64,000 nt of DNA from an uncultured Gemmatimonadaceae bacterium (GCA_963751275.1 CAVVTZ010000007.1:224001-288000), one strand, 5' to 3'; shown: positions 12,842 through 26,597, counted from the first letter of the stretch. Program-made: numbers and translations. The notes: generated by a model from the sequence alone, not told the origin.

Positions 12842-13288
12842 CTACTTGAGTTCTTCGGCGAGCGCTTCCGCGAGCGCGCCCCATGCCAGCAGCGCGCACT
12901 TGAGCCGCACCGGCAGCCGTGACACGCCGGCGAGCGCGCGCAGATCGCCGAGCGCCGCATCGCGCGCGGCCGCGTCATCGCCATGGACCATTTCCGTGAA
13001 ACGGCGCGCGAGGCGCTCCACCTGCTCGCGCGATTTCCCCTTGAGCTGCTGCGTCATCATCGACGCCGACGCCTGCGAGATGGCGCAGCCCTGGCCCGTG
13101 AACTTCACGTCGTGCACGGTGTCGCCGGCGAACTCGATCTGGAGCGTGATCTCGTCGCCGCATAGCGGGTTCTTCTTGTCCACCGACACGTTCGCGCACG
13201 GCAGCTCCCCGCGGTTCCGCGGGCGCCGGTAGTGGTCCAGCAGCACTTCCTGGTAGAGCGCGCTCAGCGCGTCGTCAGACGGAGGCAT
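12842..13288 (-). CDS. sufU: SufU (NifU-like) Fe-S assembly protein
   Basis: LYQEVLLDHY, NPLCGD, GCAISQASAS, RLKCALL. Confidence 0.93.
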   Translation of the reverse strand: MPPSDDALSALYQEVLLDHYRRPRNRGELPCANVSVDKKNPLCGDEITLQIEFAGDTVHDVKFTGQGCAISQASASMMTQQLKGKSREQVERLARRFTEMVHGDDAAARDAALGDLRALAGVSRLPVRLKCALLAWGALAEALAEELK

Positions 13289-14504
13289 GGCCGAAGAGTT
13301 CGAGTGCGGCGCGAAGGCCGCCGATCAGCGCATCCACATCCCGCTCGTCGTTGTACACCGAGAAAGATGCACGCGCCGTCGAGCCCACGCCAAGCCGGCG
13401 CATCAGCGGCTGCGCGCAGTGGTGCCCCGCGCGAATGCGATGCCCCGCGCATCCAGTATGGACGAAAGATCGTGCGGATGCACGTCCGCGAGCGTGAAGC
13501 TCACCACCGCGCCGCGCCCCGTGCCCGCGGGCGGACCGTACACCCGCACGCCCTCCACCGATGCCATCTGCCCGATCGCTCGCGACGCCAGCGCGCTGCC
13601 GTGCGCGTGCACCGCGTCCATGCCGAACGTCGCGAGATAGTCCGCCGCCGCGGCGAGCCCCACGGCGCCCTCCACGTTCGGCGTGCCCGCCTCGAACTTG
13701 TGCGGCAGCACGTTCCAGGTGCTGTGGTCATCGTGCACGAACTCGATCATGTCGCCGCCAGTCTTGTATGGCGGCATCGCCTCGAGCAGCGCGCGCCGGC
13801 CCACCAGCGCGCCCACGCCCATCGGGTCCGAACATCTTGTGCCCGCCGAAGGCGTAGAAGTCCACGCCGAGCGCGTCGATCGACACGGGCATGTGCGGCG
13901 CCGCCTGCGCGCCATCGCACACGCTGATCGCACCCGGCGCCGCCTCGCGCACCAAGGCGGCGATCTCGCGCACCGGGTTCACCGCGCCCAACACGTTCGA
14001 CACGTGATTGAACGCCACCACGCGCGTGCGCGCGGTCACCAGTCCGCGAAGCTGCTCGAGGTCCACGGAACCATCCGCGCCCAGCGGCGCGATCGTGAAC
14101 TCGGCGCCGCGCTCGAGCGCCAGCTGCTGCCAGGGGACGAAGTTGCCGTGATGCTCCGCCGCCGTCACGATGATCCGGTCGCCGGCGCGCACGTTGGCGC
14201 GCCCCCACGTGGCGGCCACGAGGTTCAGCGACTCGGTGCATTCCCCCGTGAAGAGGAACGTGTCGGGATCGGCCACGCCGAAGAAGCGCGCCAGCCGCTG
14301 GCGGGCGTTCCGGTACGCCGACGTCGCGCGCGCCGAGAGCGCGTATGCCCCGCGATGCGGGTTCGCGTAGTCGCGCGTGTAGAACTCGGCGATCGCGTCG
14401 AGCACCACGCGGGGCTTCTGTGATGTCGCCGCCGTGTCGAGGTACACGAGCGACGGATCCGCCGCGAGCAGCGGGAAATCCGACCGCGGCGCGAGCGCGC
14501 TCAT
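13275..14504 (-). CDS. sufS: SufS cysteine desulfurase (frameshifts ~13825 and ~13430)
   Basis: YLDTAATSQKP, DGAQ, GHKMFGP, FEAGTP, HPHD, RAGHHCAQP, spread across three frames. Confidence 0.9.
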
Positions 14505-14824
14505 GTGCGGCGCGGCCCCACGCAGATCATGCCGCCGATCACCATCACGCGATACACCGCGATCGGCTCCTCAGCGGGCGGATGCACCGGCGTGCCGGTG
14601 GTCAGGTCGAACTGCGCACCATGCCAGGCGCATTCGAGCCGGCCGCCGGGCAGCAGCGTGCCATTGTCGAGCGGGAATTCCTGGTGGGAACAGTGGCCGG
14701 CCACCGCGCGGATGGTGCCGCGGTCGTTGATCAGGCACACGTGCTCGCCGGCGGACGTTCGGGCGGCGAGCAGCGTACCGAGCGGCAGGTCATCCGCGGG
14801 CACCAGCGGCTCGTAGCCTTCCAT
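14501..14824 (-). CDS. Rieske-type ferredoxin
   Basis: CSH...CAWHG. Confidence 0.9.
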   Translation of the reverse strand: MEGYEPLVPADDLPLGTLLAARTSAGEHVCLINDRGTIRAVAGHCSHQEFPLDNGTLLPGGRLECAWHGAQFDLTTGTPVHPPAEEPIAVYRVMVIGGMICVGPRRT

Positions 14825-16140
14825 CAGGCGCCGGCTCCGGCCCCGGCGAATCGCGCGAGCGAGAGCGACTCGAGGCGGTCGCGCACCGGCGCGAGCTCGA
14901 TCGTCTCGATCACGTCGGCCGCGAACGCGTACGTGAGCAGCCGGCGCGACCGTCGGCGCCGATGCCGCGGCTCTCCAGATAGAACAGCGCCATCTCGTCG
15001 AGCCGGCCGACGGTCGCGCCGTGCGTGCACTTCACGTCGTCGGCGAAGATCTCGAGCTGCGGCTTGGTGTCCACCCGCGCGCGCTCGGAGAGCAGCAGGT
15101 TCGTCGTTGGTCTGCTTGCCGTCGGTCTTCTGCGCCTCGGGATGCGACGTACACCTTGCCGTTGAACACGCCGTGCGACGCGCCGTCGAGGATCCCCTTG
15201 TAGAGTTCGCGGCTGCGCAGCGGGCGCGAGGTGCTCGATGCACGTCTGATGGTCGACGTGCTGCGTGCCGTCGGTCATGTACAGGCCGTTGAGCGCGTCG
15301 CCGCATCCCGGCCCGGCGAGCTGCCGTGTAGATGTTCGTGCGCGAGAGCGCCGCGCCGCTCGCGAACGAGAAGGACTGGTAGTGGCTGTCGCGCCCCTGC
15401 ACGGCTTCCACCGTGGCGACGTGAAAGGCCCGCTCGCTCTCGCGCTGGATCTTGTAGTGTCGCAGCGTCGCGCCATTCGCCCACGTGCGATCTCCGTGAC
15501 TGCATTCGTGAGGTACGCGCGCCGCGCCGGTGGACACGTAGCTCTCCACCATCGCCGACCTGCGATCCGCGCTCCGCCACGATCAGGTTCCGCACATGCG
15601 CCGCGCCCTCGGCGGCGTTCGCATCGGCGAGAAGAGGAGATGCACCGGCGACGCCGCCTCGACGTTCGCGCCAATGTGCACCACGGCGCCGTCGTCCAGG
15701 AAGGCGGTGTTGAGGGCCGTGAACGGCGCGTTCTCCGCCTTGGCGATGCGGGTGAGGTGCCGTTCGAGCAGCTCCGGCGCTTCGCGCCACGCGCGCGGCA
15801 TGTCCATCACGCGCACGCCGGCGCTCGCGGTGCCGGTGGAGAGCTCGGCGCGGAAGCGGCCGTTCACGAACACCATCACCGGCCACGACGGGTCGAAGCG
15901 ATGCGCCGCGAGCGCCAGGGCATCCACCGTGGTCGCGACGCCGTGCAGCAGCCGGAACTCCGCCGCCGCGATCGGCGGCGGCGTTCGTGAAGTGCCAATC
16001 TTCGTTCTTCATCGTGGGGAAGCCGAGCGTCTCGAAGCGCGCGATCGCGGCGCGGCGCGCATCGCGCAGCCACGACGGCGCGGCGGCCCCGCCGTTCTTC
16101 GCGAACACCGCGTGCTGCTCGACGTAGTCCTGCACCGTCG

Positions 16141-16144
<4 letters not shown>
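14824..16144 (-). CDS. sufD: SufD (many frameshifts)
   Basis: Fragments [66 protein letters not shown]. Confidence 0.85.
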
Positions 16145-16894
<750 letters not shown>

Positions 16895-16922
16895 GGAATG
16901 CCTGTTCTAAGAAATGGTATGG

Positions 16923-17027
16923 CGCGGGACTCGGGACTCGGGACTCGCCGCGGGACGCGATAACACAGAGAGCGTGCTTTCGTCAGTTGTCGCGTCCCGC
17001 GGCGAGTCCCGAGCCCCGAGCCCCGCG
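16923..17027. repeat. 42-bp-arm palindrome containing GGGACTC heptamers, between sufB and sufC
   Basis: Arms 16923-16964 and 16986-17027, 3 mismatches. Confidence 0.9.
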
Positions 17028-17031
17028 TAGT

Positions 17032-18465
<1,434 letters not shown>

Positions 18466-18533: not shown

Positions 18534-18637
18534 CGTCGCAGCTTCGCGGACTTCCCCTGCGTAATGTCTTGCGGCGGAATGCGTTACGTGGATGGCGCCG
18601 GGTAAGGTGTTTCCTGACGCAGTGCGGCATTTCTCCC

Positions 18638-18666
18638 TTGCGCGCCATGCCGCACTGCGGTATAAT
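18638..18666 (+). promoter_or_regulatory. Putative sigma70 promoter of the phaR-like gene
   Basis: TTGCGC-17 nt-TATAAT, 6 nt before GTG 18673. Confidence 0.7.
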
Positions 18667-18672
18667 CCGCCT

Positions 18673-19140
18673 GTGAACACTCGCCACATCACCCGCTACG
18701 GGAGCCGCAAGCTGTACGACAGCTCCGCCCGGCAGTACGTGTCGCTCGATGACCTCGCGCGCCACGTACGGGCCGGGGAACACCTGCGGGTGATCGACAA
18801 GAAGACGGGGCACGATGTCACCGCCCAAACGCTCGCGCTGGTGCTGTACGAGCAGGCGCGCCAGGGCGAGCAGCTCCTCACGAGTGAACTGTTGCACGAC
18901 GTGATCCGCTCGGGGATCGGGCAGCTGCAGGAAAAGGTCGATGAGATCGTCACCGCCGGCGTCGATCGGGTGAAGCCGCTGCTCCATGCCCGCGAAGAGA
19001 TGGCGCGGCTGCGTGCCGGGATCGCGGGGATCGAGAAGTCGCTGAGGGAGTTCGCGAAGGAGACGAAGAGCGGACCTCGGCGCACAACTCCCGGCGCCCG
19101 GCAACGGCGGACGGCGAAACGCAGGAAACGGGAAGCCTAG
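18673..19140 (+). CDS. PhaR-like regulator (PHB_acc_N DNA-binding domain)
   Basis: [23 protein letters not shown]...[15 protein letters not shown]; basic C-terminal tail. Confidence 0.88.
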
Positions 19141-19208
19141 ATGATCCCGGTGATGTGACACAGGCACGCACTCGGGATGAACCACTTACCTGCTGAGAGG
19201 AACCAGTT

Positions 19209-19694
19209 ATGAAAAAGACCAACGCATTCGCACCCAAGGCGATCATCGCCAAGACGGCCGAGATGGCGCAGGAGCGCGCGCTGCAGGTGCAGGAGACGGC
19301 GCAGAACGTATGGTTCGCCGGACTGGGCGCGCTCGCGCTCGCCGAGGACCGCAGCGGCAAGCTGTTCAAGGAGCTGGTGAAGAAGGGCGAGGCCGTGGAT
19401 CTCAAGAACAAGAAGATCTTCAGCGGCATGGTGAAGGACGTCGAGGCCCGCATCGAGTTCGCGAAGGAGACCATGGTGGACGCGACCAGCGGCACGTACG
19501 AGAAGGTGAGCGGCGGCCTGGAGAACGGCATGGCGAGCGTGATGCACACGTTCGGCGTTCCCACCCGCAATGAGATCAAGACGCTGACCAAGAAGGTCGA
19601 CCTGCTCACGCAGAGCGTCGACAAGAAGTCCAAGCGGGCGATCAGCGCCGGCACCAAGCGGGTGCGTAAGGCGACCGCCGCCGCGCGCAGCTAG
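19209..19694 (+). CDS. Phasin family protein (PhaI/PhaF type)
   Basis: VWFAGLGAL...GKLFKELVKKGE and GVPTRNEI..L...VD.L; RBS GAGAGG. Confidence 0.85.
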   Translation: MKKTNAFAPKAIIAKTAEMAQERALQVQETAQNVWFAGLGALALAEDRSGKLFKELVKKGEAVDLKNKKIFSGMVKDVEARIEFAKETMVDATSGTYEKVSGGLENGMASVMHTFGVPTRNEIKTLTKKVDLLTQSVDKKSKRAISAGTKRVRKATAAARS

Positions 19695-19711
19695 CAACCG
19701 ACGGGAGCGAG

Positions 19712-20965
19712 ATGCGCCGCATGCGCCGGCACGCCAGCCGCAAGATCGGGCTGGCGCTTGCCGGCGGCGGTCCGGAGGGCGCCGTGTACGAGATCGGCGC
19801 CCTGCGGGCCCTCGAGGAAGCGCTGGACGGGATCGACTTCAATGATCTCGACAGCTATGTGGGGGTGAGCGCCGGCTCGTTCGTCGCCGCCCTCCTCGCG
19901 AACGACATCCCCATCTCGCAGCTCGTGCGGATGATCGTCACGCACGAGCCCGACGAGCAGCCTTTCCACTTCGAGAAGTTCTTCGCGCCGGCATACGGCG
20001 AGCTCGCGCGGCGCGGCCTCATGCTGCCCGGCCTCGTCGCGGAATCGATCCTGAAATTCGCACAGAAGCCCGGCGACCAGAGTCTGCGGGAGGCGTTCAC
20101 GCTGCTCGGCCGCGCGATCCCCGTTGGACTGTTCGACAACGATCCGATCCGCCGGTATCTCGAGCGGACCTTCGCGCGCAAGCACCGCACGAACGATTTC
20201 CGGAAGCTGCGCCGCAAACTGATCGTGGTCGCGGCGGATCTCGACTCCGGCCGGCCGATCCTGTTCGGCGGCAAGGGATGGGACCACGTGCCCATCTCGA
20301 AGGCCGTGCAGGCGAGCACGGCACTGCCCGGCCTCTATCCGCCGGTGCAGATCGATGGCTCCGATTGCGTGGACGGCGTGCTGCTGCGTACGGTGCACGC
20401 CTCGGTGGCGTTCGAGCAGGGCGTGGAACTGCTGCTGTGCGTGAACCCGATCGTGCCCACGGATGTCCGGCAGGCGGTGGGGCAGGGCCTCATGCCGAGC
20501 GGCATCCTCACGCGCCGCGGGCTGCCGTCGGTACTGTCACAGACGTTCCGTACGCTCATCCATTCGCGGCTGGAGGTGGGATTGTCGCGCTACGCGACGC
20601 ATTTCCCCGGCGCGGACCTCGTGCTCTTCGAGCCGGGGCGGGACGAGTACGCGATGTTCTTCTCGAACATGTTCAGCTTCTCGTCGCGGAAGGACGTGTG
20701 CGAGCTCGCGTACCGGCACACGCGCCGCGAGTTGTGGTCGCGCCGCCGCGTGCTCGAGCCGCTCTTCAAGAAGCACGGCGTGACGCTGCGGCTCGATGTG
20801 CTCAAGGACGAGACGCGCTCCGTGTGGGAGAGCGCCGGCGTGTCGACCAAGCGCCGCGCCAAGGTGTCCGCCAAGCTCCACCGCGCGCTGGCCGCGCTCG
20901 AGGACTCGGAGCGCTCCGTGAATGGCAAGCGGCGGCTCGGGCGCAAACGGAAGGTCGCGGTATAG
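19712..20965 (+). CDS. Patatin-like phospholipase/esterase
   Basis: LAGGGPEG, GVSAG nucleophile motif, ASTALPG, VDG. Confidence 0.92.
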   Translation: MRRMRRHASRKIGLALAGGGPEGAVYEIGALRALEEALDGIDFNDLDSYVGVSAGSFVAALLANDIPISQLVRMIVTHEPDEQPFHFEKFFAPAYGELARRGLMLPGLVAESILKFAQKPGDQSLREAFTLLGRAIPVGLFDNDPIRRYLERTFARKHRTNDFRKLRRKLIVVAADLDSGRPILFGGKGWDHVPISKAVQASTALPGLYPPVQIDGSDCVDGVLLRTVHASVAFEQGVELLLCVNPIVPTDVRQAVGQGLMPSGILTRRGLPSVLSQTFRTLIHSRLEVGLSRYATHFPGADLVLFEPGRDEYAMFFSNMFSFSSRKDVCELAYRHTRRELWSRRRVLEPLFKKHGVTLRLDVLKDETRSVWESAGVSTKRRAKVSAKLHRALAALEDSERSVNGKRRLGRKRKVAV

Positions 20966-21023
20966 GCTTCGCGCCCATGGTGGTCGAGTCCCGCGCACCC
21001 GCGCGACCATCACGGTTCAAGCT

Positions 21024-21200
21024 TTGAACGGATGAGACGGATGAATCCGGATGACACGGATCGCTCCCGCGGCGCGGGAGCTCTCCATTCTCCGGCACCC
21101 TTGTATCGCAGTATCCGCCAGATCCGTAAGCAGTTTGCGCGATGTCCTTTGGCGTGCGCATCGTGCCCGTTCACGCGGTCTCCGTCAGATCCGTTCCAAC
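21024..21200. repeat. Imperfect inverted array of 9-bp CGGATGA-type units between convergent genes
   Basis: ACGGATGAG-ACGGATGAA-TCCGGATGA-CACGGAT versus ATCCGCCAGATCCGT and TCCGTCAGATCCGTTC. Confidence 0.7.
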
Positions 21201-21230
21201 AGCTGTACCGCGATCTCCCCTTGCGGATCC

Positions 21231-22416
21231 CTACTTCCGCGGCGGCAACGGCCGGTCCTTCAGCCGCCAGATGAACTCGCCGCGGATCTCGCGCGCGCGC
21301 TCCTTCGGGATGCCGCGATAACCATACGGCGGTTTGCGCCACGCCCGGCAGAGCGAGAGGATCGGCCAGCCGAAGGGCAGGTAGTACCCGATCAGATCGA
21401 GGTCCCGCAGGAAGGCGTGCAGCCGGTTCTTCGGCGGCGCGCGGCGCGCGTCCCGCTCGTGGCGCACGAACGCCAATGGCCAGCCGAGCGGCACGATCTT
21501 CCAGAATTGCCCGCGCGCTTCCTTCATCTTCTTCCAGAGCGTGTCCACGCGGTACGGCTTGCGTCCGTGCAGCTGCACCAGCTCGTTCAGCTCCACCTGC
21601 ATCCGGTGCCGCACCTTCACGGCCACGGTGCGCAGCTTCTCCCGGTCGGGCTCCTCGAGATCGCCGCACTCCTCCTCGCGCACGAGCTTCGCCATGTCGA
21701 TGGGCTCGCCGACCACGAAGATGAGGTTCGCCGGCAGCGCCAGGTACCACATCCACGGGAAGATGATCGCGAGGATCCCGATCGGCAGCGGGAGGAACGG
21801 CACGGTGAACACCCGCTGCATGAACTTGTCGAGCGGCTTGAAGGGGAACCCGAACGGGTTGATCCACTCGGCGTTGATCATGTACACCGGCAGCACCGGC
21901 GTGCGGTTGCGCGCGCCGAGCAGCACGAAGCTCGTGCTGAAGCGCTGCAACTGATAGCGGCGGTGGAATCCCTTGCCGATGCCCGGCACGCCCTCGGGGA
22001 AATACAGCACCCGCTCCTTCCGCTTGAGCAGGATGTCGAAGTTGTCGAACAGCATGTCCACGCCGCCGCCGCGGCGCCAGAAATCATCCAGCCCGAATGG
22101 CCGCATCCACCATGCGAAGCTCAACTCCTTCTCGTACACCGTGCGCAGCTTCGACTCCTTCGTGTAGCCGTAGTGCTTCCAGAGCAGGCTGTCGAAGACG
22201 ATCGCGTCGAAGGGGAAGGCGTTGCCGCTGTGGTTACCGGCAAGGATCACGGGGCCGTGGTCGGGGATGTGCTCGAGCCCGAAGATCTGCGCGCGGAACC
22301 AGAATGTCGTTGATCGGCCCCATGACGTGCGCGCAGATGTCGTGCGCGAACGCGGGCTGGAACGGCTCCCATTCGTGCGTGGGCAGCGGCGGCGGCGCGG
22401 GGTCGTTGCGGCTCAT
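21231..22416 (-). CDS. Lysophospholipid/glycerolipid acyltransferase family protein (+1 frameshift ~22302)
   Basis: GLEHIP..GPVILAGNHSG...D, YFPEGVPGIGK, RYQLQRF, PVLPV. The N-terminal 60-aa ORF joins on removing one base. Confidence 0.82.
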
Positions 22417-22420
22417 CGCG

Positions 22421-24082
22421 CTACCGCCGCGTGGCGAGGATGAAGGCCAGCCCGAACAGCGGCGCCCAGGCGTACCACGGCGCGTGGAACGCGACGAGGA
22501 TCGCTCCGGCGACGAGGCACGCCCCCGCGATCAGCGTGCCGCGCAGTCCGGACAGCGGATTCTCCGCCGGCCGTTTGATCGACCGCTCGAGCACGCGCAC
22601 GCCGTCCGTCACGAGCGACGGCATCTTCAAGAGCGCATCCACGAGGTCCGGCGCGCCGCGCAGTTCCTCCTGGAAGAGCCGCACCGGGCTGAACTGCCCG
22701 ATGAACACCCGCCGCACGTGCGAGCGCGATTTCTCCGCCACGTCGAAGCCCGGCAGCAGCATGTGCCCCACGCTCTCGTACGTGATGAGCGACTTCACCA
22801 TCAGCACCAGCTCCACCGGGAAGTACATCCGGAACTGCGCGCCCTTGCTCACGCTCTCGAGCGTCAATTGCGCGAGCGAGAAACCCTCGAAGCTCGCCGC
22901 GCGCTTCCACCGCCCGGAGATCTCGGCCACTTCGCGGCGGAACCCTTCCGGATCGCCGCGGCGCCCGGGCTCGGCCACCGATGCGAGGTACCGCGCCGCG
23001 TTCTCCGCGTCGCCCATCACGAGCGAGTAGTAGTAATAGAGCAGCCCACGCCGGAGCTCGTTGTCGAGTCGACCGACCATGCCGAGATCGATGAAGCCCA
23101 CCTGCGGGCCCGGCAGCACCACGAGATTTCCGGGGTGGAGATCGGCGTGGAAGAAGCCGTCCTTGTAGATCATCTGGATGATCGAGCCCGTGCCGAGGTC
23201 CACGAGACGCTCGCGGTCCTCGAGCGGCAGCGCCTGCGCCCTCTTGGAGTCCGGTCGCTCGCCGTCCAGGAACTCCATGGTAAGCACGGTGCGCGAACTG
23301 TAGTCCCGGAAGATCGTGGGGAAGATGATGTCGGGCTGGTCCGCGAAGTTCGCGTGGAAGGTGTCGCAGTTGTCCGCTTCGCGGCGAAGATCGACTTCCT
23401 TCAGCGTGTAATCGCAGAATTCCTTGATGATCCGCTGCGGCTGGTAACGGCTGAAGAAGAGCTGCAGCGTGGCGCCCACTCCCCGAAGCAGCTTCGCGTC
23501 GGTGATCAGCGTCTCGCGGATGCCCGGCTTCACCATCTTGATCACGACGTCGTCGCCGTGGATGGTGGTGGCCCGGTGGATCTGCGCGATCGACGCGGAG
23601 CCGAGCGGCACCTCGTGCACGTCCGCGAACATCGCGGCGATCGGACGGTCGAGGCTCTTCTCCACCATCTCGCAGAACACCGGGTACGGCACGATCGGCA
23701 AACGGTCGAGCAGATTGCGCAGCTCGTCGGTGATCGGCTTGGGGAGGATGTCCTCGCGCAGGCTCAGGATCTGTCCGAGCTTGATGTACGTGGGGCCGAG
23801 CAGTTCGAGCCGCCGCCGCAACTGCACGGGGAACGGCTGGTCGCGCAGGTCGCGGCGGATGAACGGCCGCACGAGGAAGGCGCCTGTGCCGGCGATCGCG
23901 CGCAACAGATAGCGCGGATCACGCGCATCGCGCAGGCTGTGCGAGTACGAGACCAGTCCGCCCGCGAGCAGCGCGGTCGTCTGGTGCACGGTCACCACGA
24001 AGCGGCGCGCGAGGCTCGGCGCCCGCGTGTCCGTCATGAACGTGAAGCCCGGCGGCGCGCCCTCCGCCGCGGTCGCCGTCAT
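22421..24082 (-). CDS. AarF/ABC1/UbiB family atypical kinase
   Basis: LGPTYIKLGQ, LGSASIAQIH, VIKMVKP, FHADLHPGN, IDLGMVG, two C-terminal TMs. Confidence 0.94.
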   Translation of the reverse strand: MTATAAEGAPPGFTFMTDTRAPSLARRFVVTVHQTTALLAGGLVSYSHSLRDARDPRYLLRAIAGTGAFLVRPFIRRDLRDQPFPVQLRRRLELLGPTYIKLGQILSLREDILPKPITDELRNLLDRLPIVPYPVFCEMVEKSLDRPIAAMFADVHEVPLGSASIAQIHRATTIHGDDVVIKMVKPGIRETLITDAKLLRGVGATLQLFFSRYQPQRIIKEFCDYTLKEVDLRREADNCDTFHANFADQPDIIFPTIFRDYSSRTVLTMEFLDGERPDSKRAQALPLEDRERLVDLGTGSIIQMIYKDGFFHADLHPGNLVVLPGPQVGFIDLGMVGRLDNELRRGLLYYYYSLVMGDAENAARYLASVAEPGRRGDPEGFRREVAEISGRWKRAASFEGFSLAQLTLESVSKGAQFRMYFPVELVLMVKSLITYESVGHMLLPGFDVAEKSRSHVRRVFIGQFSPVRLFQEELRGAPDLVDALLKMPSLVTDGVRVLERSIKRPAENPLSGLRGTLIAGACLVAGAILVAFHAPWYAWAPLFGLAFILATRR

Positions 24083-24083
24083 G

Positions 24084-25631
24084 TCAGCGATTCCGCCCGT
24101 ACTTCTCGTGCGAGCTCACCCACTCGAGCGATGAGATCGCCGCGGCCAGCGAGATCTCGCCGGCGAGCACGACCCCGGCGATGATCTCGGCCAGCTTGTG
24201 CGCCTTCCCCTTGCCCACGCAGCCCAGGATCTCGAGGCACTCGCGCTGGGTGGGGAGCGCCGTGCCGCCGCCGTGCGTGGCGACGATGAGCGACGGGATG
24301 GTGATCGAGATGTACAGGTCGCGCGCCGGCGTCAGCTCCGAGTAGATGATGCCGGCGGCGCCCTCGGAGACGTTCGCCACGTCCTGCCCGGTGGCGATGA
24401 ACATCGCGGTGATGCCGTTCGCCGAGTGGAGCCCGTTGTTGTTGGCCCCGGAGAGCAGCGTGCCGACGTTCGCGACGCCGCCGTGATAGGTCAGGCTCTC
24501 CGGCTCCACCCGCAGTTCGCTCATCAGCACTTCGCGCGGGATCGTCGCCTCGGCCGTCACGCGCTTGCCGCGCGTGCGCATGACATTCACCTGCGAGGCT
24601 TTCTTGTCCGTGGCGAAATTCGATTCGAGGAAGAAGCGGCGGATCGTGGGCACCTGCTCCAGGATCCAGCTGCACGCGGCGAAGGTGGCGCGCCCCGTCA
24701 TGTTCTGCCCGGCGGCGTCGCCCGTGCTGAAGTTGAAGCGCAGGTACGCGAACTTGCTCGCGAGATAGATGTCGATGTAGAGCATCTTCGCGACGCTGGA
24801 GGTGGCCTCCGCCTCCTTCGCGATCTCCGGCAGATGCGCGTTCACCCACGTGCGGAACTCGCGCGCCTCGCGCGCGGAATCGAAGATGAACACCGGCGCG
24901 CGCTGCATGCAGTCGTCGCTCACCGTGCACGTCACGCCGCCCGACAGGTTGAGCACCTTCATGCCGCGGTTGTAACTCGCGACGAGCGTGCCCTCCGTGG
25001 TGGCGAGCGGGATGAGGAACTCGCCCTGCGCGTGCTCGCCGTGCACCATCAGCGGGCCGGCGAGGCCGAGCGGCACCTGCGCGACGCCAATGAAGTTCTC
25101 GATGTTCCCGCGCGTCAGCTCCGGATCGAACGACGGCTTGTTGACGTGCTTCAGATCCTTGCCGCTCGCCTTGGCGAGGAAGCGGTGCCGTTCGGTGATG
25201 ATCTTCGGCGAATAGTTGAGCGCCGCGTCCTTCTCGTACGGGATGGAGGTGCGCTTGGTCTGCGCATCGTGGAGCGCGTCCTTCACCGCGATCTCGAGCT
25301 CGCCGAAGCCGCTCGCTTCCACGAGCAGCTTGATCTCGTGCGACCCGTGCGTGAGCGGGCGCGCCTTGGCGTGCAGGTGCGCGATCTCCTTGAGCGGGAA
25401 GGGCACGGCCTGCTGCGGCGTCAGGTCCGCCGCTGCCATGTCGCGGCCGGCGCCGAACTGCACGCGCACGTTCTGGAGCGGCACCTCATCCCCATCCACG
25501 CGCAAGCGCACGAGACGCGTCAGCGTCACGTCGCTCAGCCGGTTGCGCAGGCTGAACGCGAATCCGTCAGCGGTGTTCTCCAGCGAACCGAAGGTGTACA
25601 ATTGCCGCAGCAGGAGCGAAGGGATCTTCAT
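24084..25631 (-). CDS. Class I HMG-CoA reductase with extra ~125-aa N-terminal domain
   Basis: NIENFIG, PLATTEGTLVAS, TGDAAGQNM, NFATDKK, TGQDVANV, GGGT, LAGEISL, C-terminal His. Confidence 0.92.
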   Translation of the reverse strand: MKIPSLLLRQLYTFGSLENTADGFAFSLRNRLSDVTLTRLVRLRVDGDEVPLQNVRVQFGAGRDMAAADLTPQQAVPFPLKEIAHLHAKARPLTHGSHEIKLLVEASGFGELEIAVKDALHDAQTKRTSIPYEKDAALNYSPKIITERHRFLAKASGKDLKHVNKPSFDPELTRGNIENFIGVAQVPLGLAGPLMVHGEHAQGEFLIPLATTEGTLVASYNRGMKVLNLSGGVTCTVSDDCMQRAPVFIFDSAREAREFRTWVNAHLPEIAKEAEATSSVAKMLYIDIYLASKFAYLRFNFSTGDAAGQNMTGRATFAACSWILEQVPTIRRFFLESNFATDKKASQVNVMRTRGKRVTAEATIPREVLMSELRVEPESLTYHGGVANVGTLLSGANNNGLHSANGITAMFIATGQDVANVSEGAAGIIYSELTPARDLYISITIPSLIVATHGGGTALPTQRECLEILGCVGKGKAHKLAEIIAGVVLAGEISLAAAISSLEWVSSHEKYGRNR

Positions 25632-25778
25632 GGGTCCGCGGACGGTCAGGTCGGCGGCCGCGAGACCCGAATGTGGGGGCGGCGCCGGACGGTGAGTATG
25701 GGCAGTCGCCCTACACGGTGCAGGGCGACTGCCGATACGCGTACGCTACCGTGCGACCCGCGAGCGGGGAAGAGCGCG

Positions 25779-26597
25779 CTACCGGAAGACCAGGTAGAGC
25801 ACCAGCAGGATGCTGGCGATCGCCGCGCCGATGAGCATCGGCATCAGCGGCAGGCGCCGCGAACCGTCCACCGGATATTTCCCGCCCTCCATCGTGACGG
25901 CGCGCTGCGCGAGCTGCGTGCTGCGGCGGCTGAACGCGTCGTCATCGTGGTCCTCGAACTGCACCGGGCGCACGCCCGGGGGCAGCGGCTGGCGCGTGAA
26001 GGTGAAGATCGTGTCGCCCACCTGGATCTGGTCACCCTCCACCAGGATCTTGGGGTCCTTCGCGGGCTGGTTGTTGATCTTCGTGCCGGACGAACCCATC
26101 GAGTAGATGACGAATTCGCCCGCTTCGCCGCGCACGTCCGCGTGGAAGCGCGACACGGTGGGATCCTTGAGCACGATGCTGCAGCCGATCTCGCGCCCGA
26201 TCTGCACGACGCGCTTGCGCAGCGTGTAGCCCTTTCGGCTCGAGGTGTCGATCAGGTGTGCATCGGCCGGCGGCTTCGCGGCGGCGGGGCGCGCCGTGGC
26301 GGCGTCCTTCAGGAAGACGAATCGCGCGTTGCCCGCCGCGATCACATCACCCGAATTGATCGGTGTGCCCGATGGCGGCACCTGCTTGCCGCTCACGACC
26401 ACCACATTCTGCGGCGACGCGGGCACGACGGCCCCCGTTCCATCGATCGATCCGCGGACCTTGAAATGCCGCGCCGCCAGGTCCAGTCCCGCGAGACGCC
26501 ACTCCGCCTGCGATCCGCTCCCGACCATCAACTCGCCGTTGAATTCGCGCGGGTTGCCATCGAGGTCGGGCTTTCCTTCGAGCTCAAGAACGGGCAT
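25779..26597 (-). CDS. FHA-domain protein (two FHA-like domains, C-terminal TM)
   Basis: IGRE...VSRFHA...SSGTKIN...LVEGDQIQVG; degenerate N-terminal copy. Confidence 0.87.
   Translation of the reverse strand: MPVLELEGKPDLDGNPREFNGELMVGSGSQAEWRLAGLDLAARHFKVRGSIDGTGAVVPASPQNVVVVSGKQVPPSGTPINSGDVIAAGNARFVFLKDAATARPAAAKPPADAHLIDTSSRKGYTLRKRVVQIGREIGCSIVLKDPTVSRFHADVRGEAGEFVIYSMGSSGTKINNQPAKDPKILVEGDQIQVGDTIFTFTRQPLPPGVRPVQFEDHDDDAFSRRSTQLAQRAVTMEGGKYPVDGSRRLPLMPMLIGAAIASILLVLYLVFR

Follow-up and report, generated by a model that had tools for sequence, protein, structure and literature searches.

A candidate wax-ester lipid-body gene cluster in a Gemmatimonadaceae bacterium, with a PlsC-fold acyltransferase where related genomes carry WS/DGAT

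Which lipid would be handled by a gene cluster that joins the proteins of a polyhydroxyalkanoate (PHA) granule to a reductase named after the mevalonate pathway? The question is raised by positions 18,638 to 25,631 of a 64,000-nt stretch of DNA (the window; all positions are counted from its first letter) from an uncultured Gemmatimonadaceae bacterium (GCA_963751275.1, CAVVTZ010000007.1:224001-288000), whose genome assembly, designated G000, is 83% complete. A sequence-only reading of the window had described six lipid-related genes in two convergent units, and all six were located by their Pfam domains: PhaR-like, phasin and patatin genes on the plus strand, and reductase, ABC1 and acyltransferase genes on the minus strand. 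The closest named homologues come from Gemmatimonadota, and all NCBIfam matches fall under the model cut-offs. We consider it probable, at roughly 60%, that the cluster is a wax-ester lipid-body module, which would make, coat and break down wax droplets and in which the acyltransferase would take the place of WS/DGAT.

18673..19140, plus strand: PhaR-like repressor, 155 residues, N-terminal DNA-binding domain only, with a basic tail (PF07879, E 1e-18; under the TIGR01848 cut-off)
19209..19694, plus strand: phasin of the PF05597 type, 161 residues, predicted droplet coat (PF05597, E 1e-24)
19712..20965, plus strand: patatin-like ester hydrolase, 417 residues, predicted mobilising lipase (PF01734, E 2e-25)
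21231..22416, minus strand: PlsC/GPAT-fold acyltransferase, about 395 residues, H-x7-D motif, candidate wax synthase, frameshifted in the assembly (PF01553)
22304..22306, minus strand: one-base frameshift in the acyltransferase gene, probably an assembly error (comparison with related contigs and homologous loci)
22421..24082, minus strand: ABC1/UbiB atypical kinase-ATPase, 553 residues, C-terminal hydrophobic helix (PF03109, E 8e-59)
24084..25631, minus strand: assigned to FcrA, a fatty acyl-CoA reductase of the class I HMGR fold, 515 residues (PF00368 and PF25653; residue signature)
25272..25613, minus strand: N-terminal PF25653 domain of FcrA, that is, Lad, the long-chain alkyl carrier domain (PF25653, E 4e-33, residues 7-120)

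The gaps within the minus-strand unit measure 1 and 4 bp, just as had been claimed, and the two units lie 265 bp apart. The motifs of the patatin (GGGPEG, GVSAG with S53, and DGV with D221) and of the ABC1 protein (KLGQ, VVIK, HADLHPGN and DLG) are intact.

Identity of the reductase

The gene had been read as an HMG-CoA reductase (HMGR), an enzyme whose ligands for the HMG carboxylate are Ser684 and a pocket lysine that we take to be Lys735 in human numbering. In the protein of the window, both ligands are replaced, by E336 and A387, and a true HMG-CoA reductase is thereby discarded. Such replacements are known from FcrA, described by Grossi et al. (ISME J 2025), whose accessible text gives, as FcrA-specific changes, Ser684 to Glu, the pocket lysine (printed there as Lys795) to a small residue and Leu862 to a bulky residue (Trp), and which also describes the Lad domain (PMC11948995). 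According to the same source, Pb-FcrA carries out the NADPH-dependent reduction of acyl-CoA of C14 or longer and leaves HMG-CoA unreduced (PMC11948995).

The window's protein was aligned with human, plant and archaeal HMGR structures and with 85 other family rows, one of which is a partial second copy, so that each column counts 85 of the 86 rows. The catalytic residues E213, K343, D417 and H508 are invariant (85/85), and so is E336 among the selectivity positions; position 387 is Ala, Ser or Gly in all 85, and W504 is kept in 84/85. With an offset of 23-24, the seven positions correspond to E236, K367, D441, H532, E360, G411 and W528 of FcrA from N. pharaonis (PMC11948995). The protein has 65% identity with a homologue from Promineifilum sp. 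In the gene tree it falls into a single clade with Promineifilum sp. L052 (support 99), which shares its genus with Pb-FcrA and need not be the assayed protein, separate from an HMGR of a Streptomyces mevalonate cluster. By this directly observed residue signature, the "HMG-CoA reductase" of the cluster is assigned to FcrA, a fatty acyl-CoA-to-alcohol reductase, and the sequence-only reading was right in one of its two branches, namely that the reductase makes an alcohol.

Other members of the family depart from this pattern. Close FcrA copies apparently without a Lad domain (the match begins at residue 113-128) occur in full clusters, in L086/L096 (G002) and probably in G021, G185 and G204. 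There is also a second HMGR-like clade, 38-43% identical, in 6/60 genomes of the family (L087-L091 and L097-L100; G053, G052, G038, G045 and G013), which lacks the pocket lysine and has Glu at the Ser684 position and Phe in place of Trp. Its neighbours are presumably DUF3419/BtaA-like, membrane cytidylyltransferase/kinase-like and UbiA-like proteins, a setting that suggests a different alcohol-using lipid pathway. The four genomes of the phylum sample (see below) with this clade have neither the acyltransferase nor WS/DGAT. Finally, L105, on a Sinorhizobium meliloti plasmid (CP140923.1), holds a divergent HMGR-like gene with a remodelled active-site loop in an acyl-CoA carboxylase / MmgE-PrpD cluster, and its product probably uses another substrate again.

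Conservation of the cluster and exclusion of WS/DGAT

Whether the two units belong together was judged from other genomes. Among at least 579 confirmed relatives, the best 80 loci were compared, many of them cut by contig ends. ABC1 is present in 55 of these loci, phasin in 24, and patatin and phaR in 22 each; WS/DGAT is encoded in 19 and the PlsC-fold enzyme in 9. The full set of reductase, ABC1, patatin, phasin and phaR is found in 18/80, and with an acyltransferase as well in 15/80. The hosts include Acidobacteriota, Gemmatimonadota, Calditrichota, Chloroflexota, KSB1 and others, and the two units proved to be syntenic across phyla. In a phylum sample of 161 genomes, G000 among them and 159 of them near complete, 16 have an FcrA of at least 61% identity, and 4 further genomes have a homologue of 39-43% identity. 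Exactly the same 16 genomes hold the ABC1 orthologue and a phasin above the PF05597 cut-off (3 more have a phasin below it). This co-occurrence, like the gene content, is directly observed: the arrangement is not due to chance, and the six genes are one module.

Further neighbours recur in the best 80 loci, namely a GMC oxidoreductase (19/80), a pair of ArsA/Get3-like ATPases (14/80), an acyl-CoA ligase (6/80) and an SCP2 protein (4/80). Homologues of the GMC protein (47%) and of the ligase (40%) lie outside the cluster in G000, where the ArsA pair is unmatched. In L095 (G039:C1:4996600-5003400), a single run contains WS/DGAT, a stand-alone Lad-domain gene, a Lad-FcrA, a FadD-like ligase and ABC1, with a patatin gene facing the run.

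If FcrA produces a fatty alcohol, which enzyme would esterify it? According to the accessible text of the FcrA paper, the FcrA and WS/DGAT pathway has in common with the window the Lad N-domain, the class I HMGR fold, the catalytic and selectivity residues and the absence of a mevalonate pathway (PMC11948995). By contrast, PF03007 or PF06974 was unmatched in G000, as the genome search suggested by the sequence-only reading showed, and a PlsC-fold enzyme occupies the slot. In one run of this search the control was unmatched everywhere; the PF06974 model itself matched in 39/55 test genomes. Directly after ABC1, where the window has its PlsC-fold gene, many relatives have WS/DGAT, and no locus among the best 80 has both.

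The same alternation is observed directly at the level of genomes, with orthologues of the acyltransferase defined by E below 1e-50, a cut placed post hoc at a gap in the scores (5e-53 to 6e-19; 4e-56 to 3e-23). Among 85 FcrA genomes of several phyla, 62 have only WS/DGAT, 18 only the acyltransferase, 1 both and 4 neither. The first 55, picked with the locus content known, divide into 38, 16, 1 and 0 in the same order, and the 30 held-out genomes into 24, 2, 0 and 4. As for the 16 phylum carriers, the acyltransferase is present in 10 (5 genera), a full-length WS/DGAT in 6 (1 genus) and both in none, while the other 145 genomes have neither, save for one weak partial PF06974 match in G269; the two sets overlap in G000, G002 and apparently G066/G284. 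On the FcrA gene tree (FastTree), the acyltransferase state requires 12 changes, and of the 7 independent pairs taken from well-supported branches, about 6 were concordant and 0 discordant (sign-test p 0.03-0.06). Metagenome loci anchored on the acyltransferase itself (the best 80 of 128, 55 of them close and 25 distant, at 33-41% identity) have WS/DGAT in 0/80; among the 55 close ones, ABC1 is present in 44 and FcrA in 30. Distant homologues (L179-L204) often stand beside a short phasin-like gene and are Bacteroidota-like by Atlas clusters; L179 brings together ligases, an SDR, a phasin-like gene, ABC1 and FcrA.

Because of this mutual exclusion and the frequently shared slot, the acyltransferase is a candidate for a new type of bacterial wax synthase, and the final synthesis step is likely performed by an uncharacterised enzyme, standing where related genomes have the one kind of wax synthase known from bacteria. 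At odds only slightly better than even, the PlsC-fold H-x7-D enzyme would represent a second class of wax synthases in bacteria, unrelated to the first and swapped repeatedly with WS/DGAT inside a mobile cassette (FcrA, ABC1, phasin, patatin and PhaR) that reuses the parts of the PHA granule for wax droplets in Gemmatimonadota, Acidobacteriota, Calditrichota, KSB1 and Bacteroidota. The reductase step had been described before, and what is new here is the swap. In the literature covered, which leaves out most subscription papers, nothing relevant to this gene combination or to a PlsC-type bacterial wax synthase was found beyond the FcrA paper, whose main text, in the part available, mentions none of phasin, patatin, AarF, ABC1 and Gemmatimonad (PMC11948995).

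Surveys of wax and fat storage in bacteria count WS/DGAT genes, and 18/85 FcrA genomes and 10/16 phylum carriers would score as non-producers despite having what looks like a complete module. That fcrA is often found without WS/DGAT is pointed out in the FcrA paper itself (PMC11948995); the PlsC-fold acyltransferase offers a specific candidate partner for part of this gap. The cluster also indicates that phasin and PhaR are unreliable as signs of PHA. In addition, it links an ABC1/UbiB kinase with a simple neutral-lipid pathway where the function of the kinase could be dissected. If the assignment is true, a new wax synthase would be a part for biotechnology.

The acyltransferase and the product of the cluster

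In the assembly, the reading frame of the acyltransferase gene changes after about 37 codons through one extra base at about 22304-22306. Contigs of related strains, which do not derive from the organism's own reads, have one base fewer at this site in 4/4 runs; in a set of 80 homologous loci, a single frame runs through the site in 77 and a frame change is seen in none; a protein of 91% identity is intact; and the same assembly has further frameshifted genes. The frameshift is probably an assembly error. A true pseudogene in the G000 strain is unlikely in view of the related contigs, the homologous loci in frame and the other frameshifts.

The spacing between His and Asp in the PlsC motif is x4. 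In 69 orthologues of the window's enzyme, A-N-H-S-G-x3-P-x-D and PEGVPGIGKGF are invariant (H and D in 69/69), and the H-x7-D spacing holds in 120/120 close homologues. An AlphaFold model built for an orthologue that is intact (pLDDT 90) retrieved T. maritima PlsC (E 2e-5, 17% identity), squash GPAT (2e-4, 12%) and related folds with Foldseek, and the modelled protein is assigned to the PlsC/GPAT (LPLAT) fold with a His...Asp dyad motif. A sequence search of the PDB with the acyltransferase alignment found no solved relative. The protein is not of the WS/DGAT type (PF03007/PF06974); it matches PF01553, with the PlsC/GPAT fold. In the nearest other Atlas family, 91% of the members carry PF03982 (DAGAT), a domain detected weakly (E 0.075) in 1/69 members of the acyltransferase family, which lack the HPHG motif and have NHSG-x3-P-x-D instead. 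A housekeeping PlsC is unlikely and was rejected, since G000 has four other PF01553 genes and 151/161 phylum genomes do without the acyltransferase. No Rosetta-stone fusion with FcrA was encountered, the long homologues being fused to PilZ, a TAtT-like domain or TruB.

Enzymes with a His-Asp dyad that make neutral esters are known elsewhere, as in DIESL (TMEM68; PMC10482677), mammalian AWAT2, a wax-ester-forming homologue of DGAT2 (PMC4694924), and slr2103 (PMC12223511), and in this dyad they resemble the window's enzyme. The motifs differ: H-x7-D in the window, H130/D136 in DIESL (PMC10482677) and HPHG in DGAT2/AWAT2 (PMC4694924). In the accessible text of the AWAT2 source, WS/DGAT is given as the bacterial subclade of wax synthases (PMC4694924).

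Put together, the genes suggest the following route. A FadD homologue encoded elsewhere in G000 would supply acyl-CoA, and FcrA would reduce long-chain acyl-CoA to fatty alcohol, an activity shown in print for a homologue. The PlsC-fold acyltransferase would then join the alcohol to a second acyl-CoA and form the wax ester in place of WS/DGAT, as the exclusion pattern suggests. The phasin would coat the resulting droplet, and the patatin, whose motifs are intact, would hydrolyse the stored esters. By analogy with polyhydroxybutyrate (PHB), the PhaR-like protein might sense droplets and, for as long as it is not sequestered by them, repress phaR-phasin-patatin through a two-copy operator. Perhaps the ABC1 ATPase, with its intact kinase motifs and membrane anchor, helps a hydrophobic compound, be it substrate or product, to pass between the membrane and the droplet. 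No other step of the route is as weak, and our confidence in it is low.

Several points weigh against a wax-ester module. The function of the cluster is a prediction from its genes, and the acyltransferase gene is frameshifted in an assembly that is 83% complete. Only 2 acyltransferase cases came from the 30 held-out genomes, 4 of which have neither enzyme, and the six WS/DGAT genomes of the phylum sample belong to one genus, so the clean split there amounts to few events. FcrA is present in only 2/25 of the distant acyltransferase loci (33-41% identity). WS/DGAT is bifunctional, and its replacement is consequently no proof of a fatty-alcohol acceptor. Lastly, the operator is found upstream of fcrA in only 3/100 loci, in all of which fcrA and phaR diverge from a common intergenic stretch, so that PhaR control of the synthesis arm would be speculative.

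What else could the cluster make? The droplets might hold neutral lipids of another kind if the acyltransferase were a DGAT-type enzyme producing triacylglycerol or another non-wax ester, with the FcrA alcohol used elsewhere or as a minor acceptor. WS/DGAT enzymes also produce triacylglycerol (PMC11948995), the acyltransferase DIESL/TMEM68, with its His-Asp dyad, is a DGAT (PMC10482677), and some distant homologues of the window's enzyme give weak PF03982 matches and often stand beside a phasin-like gene with no FcrA in the locus. Nevertheless, we regard this product as unlikely, given that in 10/10 phylum genomes the acyltransferase occurs only alongside FcrA and without any other candidate alcohol acyltransferase of the WS/DGAT family. 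The ABC1 protein invites comparison with plastoglobules and cyanoglobules, on whose droplets an ABC1 kinase is likewise paired with a DGAT2-like acyltransferase; cyanoglobules have three ABC1 kinases and slr2103, the contested product of which has been reassigned to acylated plastoquinone (PMC12223511). In a quinone-ester system of this sort, ABC1 would present a quinol or prenol for acylation, and ABC1 is indeed the most constant partner (55/80 FcrA loci and 44/55 close acyltransferase loci). However, FcrA would be left without a partner, the ABC1 partner in the window is a fatty-alcohol reductase, prenyl-lipid enzymes are absent from the cluster and families of prenyl or quinone genes are absent among the recurrent neighbours, all of which makes such a system improbable. 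It is decidedly improbable, too, that ether (alkylglycerol) lipids are what FcrA produces together with the PlsC-like enzyme. Some taxa have FcrA with PlsC-like domains and AGPS, ether lipids have been proposed for some FcrA genomes (PMC11948995), and the fold is that of GPAT/PlsC; yet neither exclusion of WS/DGAT nor use of the same slot is what one would expect of an ether pathway, and no AGPS-like family is among the recurrent neighbours. PF02913 matches occur in 5 acyltransferase genomes, and the 4 proteins scanned (leaving out the matches in G183 and G105 and the frameshifted G000 copy, and using no AGPS-specific model) resemble GlcD or D-lactate dehydrogenase rather than AGPS.

The names given by Pfam and the databases would instead describe a classical PHA granule operon lying by accident beside a true mevalonate HMG-CoA reductase, and in a genome that is 83% complete the remaining genes could be missing. 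Against this stand the replaced HMG-binding residues, the exact co-occurrence in 16/161 genomes and the searches for both pathways. PHA synthase, for which the sequence-only reading had recommended a genome search, was matched in 0/55 FcrA genomes with PF07167 (run on 55 of the 85) and in 0/10 with TIGR01836, and the positive control matched in Caulobacter. HMG-CoA synthase gave a strong match (E below 1e-19) in 4/54 carrier genomes and any match at E 0.001 in 14/54. Among near-complete carriers it went undetected in 7, namely G002, G039 and a further set of five (0/5), as it did in G000 (83% complete), and G000 has the methylerythritol phosphate (MEP) pathway gene dxr. An accidental neighbourhood of this kind is scarcely credible and already largely refuted. 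The replaced ligands, the HMG-CoA synthase searches and dxr likewise speak against the isoprenoid or mevalonate role that had been offered as the other branch of the reductase's function, and this role was rejected. What stands of the earlier proposal, by synteny and by the PHA synthase searches, is a storage lipid other than PHA with a synthesis arm and a coat and mobilisation arm; the isoprenoid precursor does not. A search for a FarA-type reductase (PF03015) matched 0/5 genomes and is uninformative, as its control was also unmatched everywhere.

Control of the plus-strand unit and neighbouring features

How might the coat and mobilisation genes be regulated under the wax-ester reading? The region ahead of phaR contains the following elements.

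18615..18629, no strand: PhaR-type operator copy 1, a 15-bp palindrome with the core CGC-R-N-Y-GCG (best of 43 genome-wide matrix matches; inverted repeat with copy 2)
18638..18643, plus strand: predicted -35 box TTGCGC, 17 bp from the -10 box (3/6 to consensus and so uncalled by the promoter scan)
18648..18662, no strand: PhaR-type operator copy 2, in the promoter spacer (second-best of 43 genome-wide matrix matches)
18661..18666, plus strand: predicted -10 box TATAAT, 6 nt ahead of the GTG start at 18673

The two copies of the operator, a sequence observed directly, overlap the promoter of phaR-phasin-patatin and flank its weak -35 box, at whose position many relatives have TTGACA. The start of phaR had been placed at 18638; this is the TTG of the predicted -35 box and is not in the phaR frame, and the in-frame start is most likely the GTG at 18673, giving 155 residues. 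From the spacing of the predicted elements, the phaR transcript is likely leaderless. No second Pfam domain was found in the PhaR-like protein.

A pattern derived from the window matches 40/52 phaR upstream regions, compared with 2.0 in shuffles, and with a matrix built from other loci only, the two sites of the window rank first among the 43 matches in G000; the 49/52 phaR regions matched by the operator matrix are partly circular. In the accessible text on AniA/PhaR of S. meliloti, the shared traits are the PF07879 domain, the core YGCRNYGCR, two copies flanking the -35 box and a phasin as target, and the phaP1 and phaP2 sites are verified there by electrophoretic mobility shift assay (PMC12542648), whereas the operator of the window is predicted. 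Unlike the control of PHB granules in S. meliloti, that in the window would operate where PHA synthase was not found, with a phasin of the PF05597 type, a regulator co-transcribed with phasin and patatin, and only the N-terminal PhaR domain detected.

The promoter scan of the locus returned 0 sites, and no terminator was found between the two convergent units. A hairpin with 21-bp arms lies at 25696-25738, between fcrA and an upstream FHA-domain gene (25779-26597), which is unmatched in 80/80 related loci and is therefore placed outside the module. On the other side of the cluster, at 12842-18460, the genes of one operon, which we take from their translations to be the SUF iron-sulfur operon, are broken by several frameshifts, which fits an error-prone assembly. 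In another genome, G260, a single open frame (L210:676-3144) combines a GlcD/YdiJ-like oxidase with a thymidylate synthase, either as a real fusion or as an assembly artefact.

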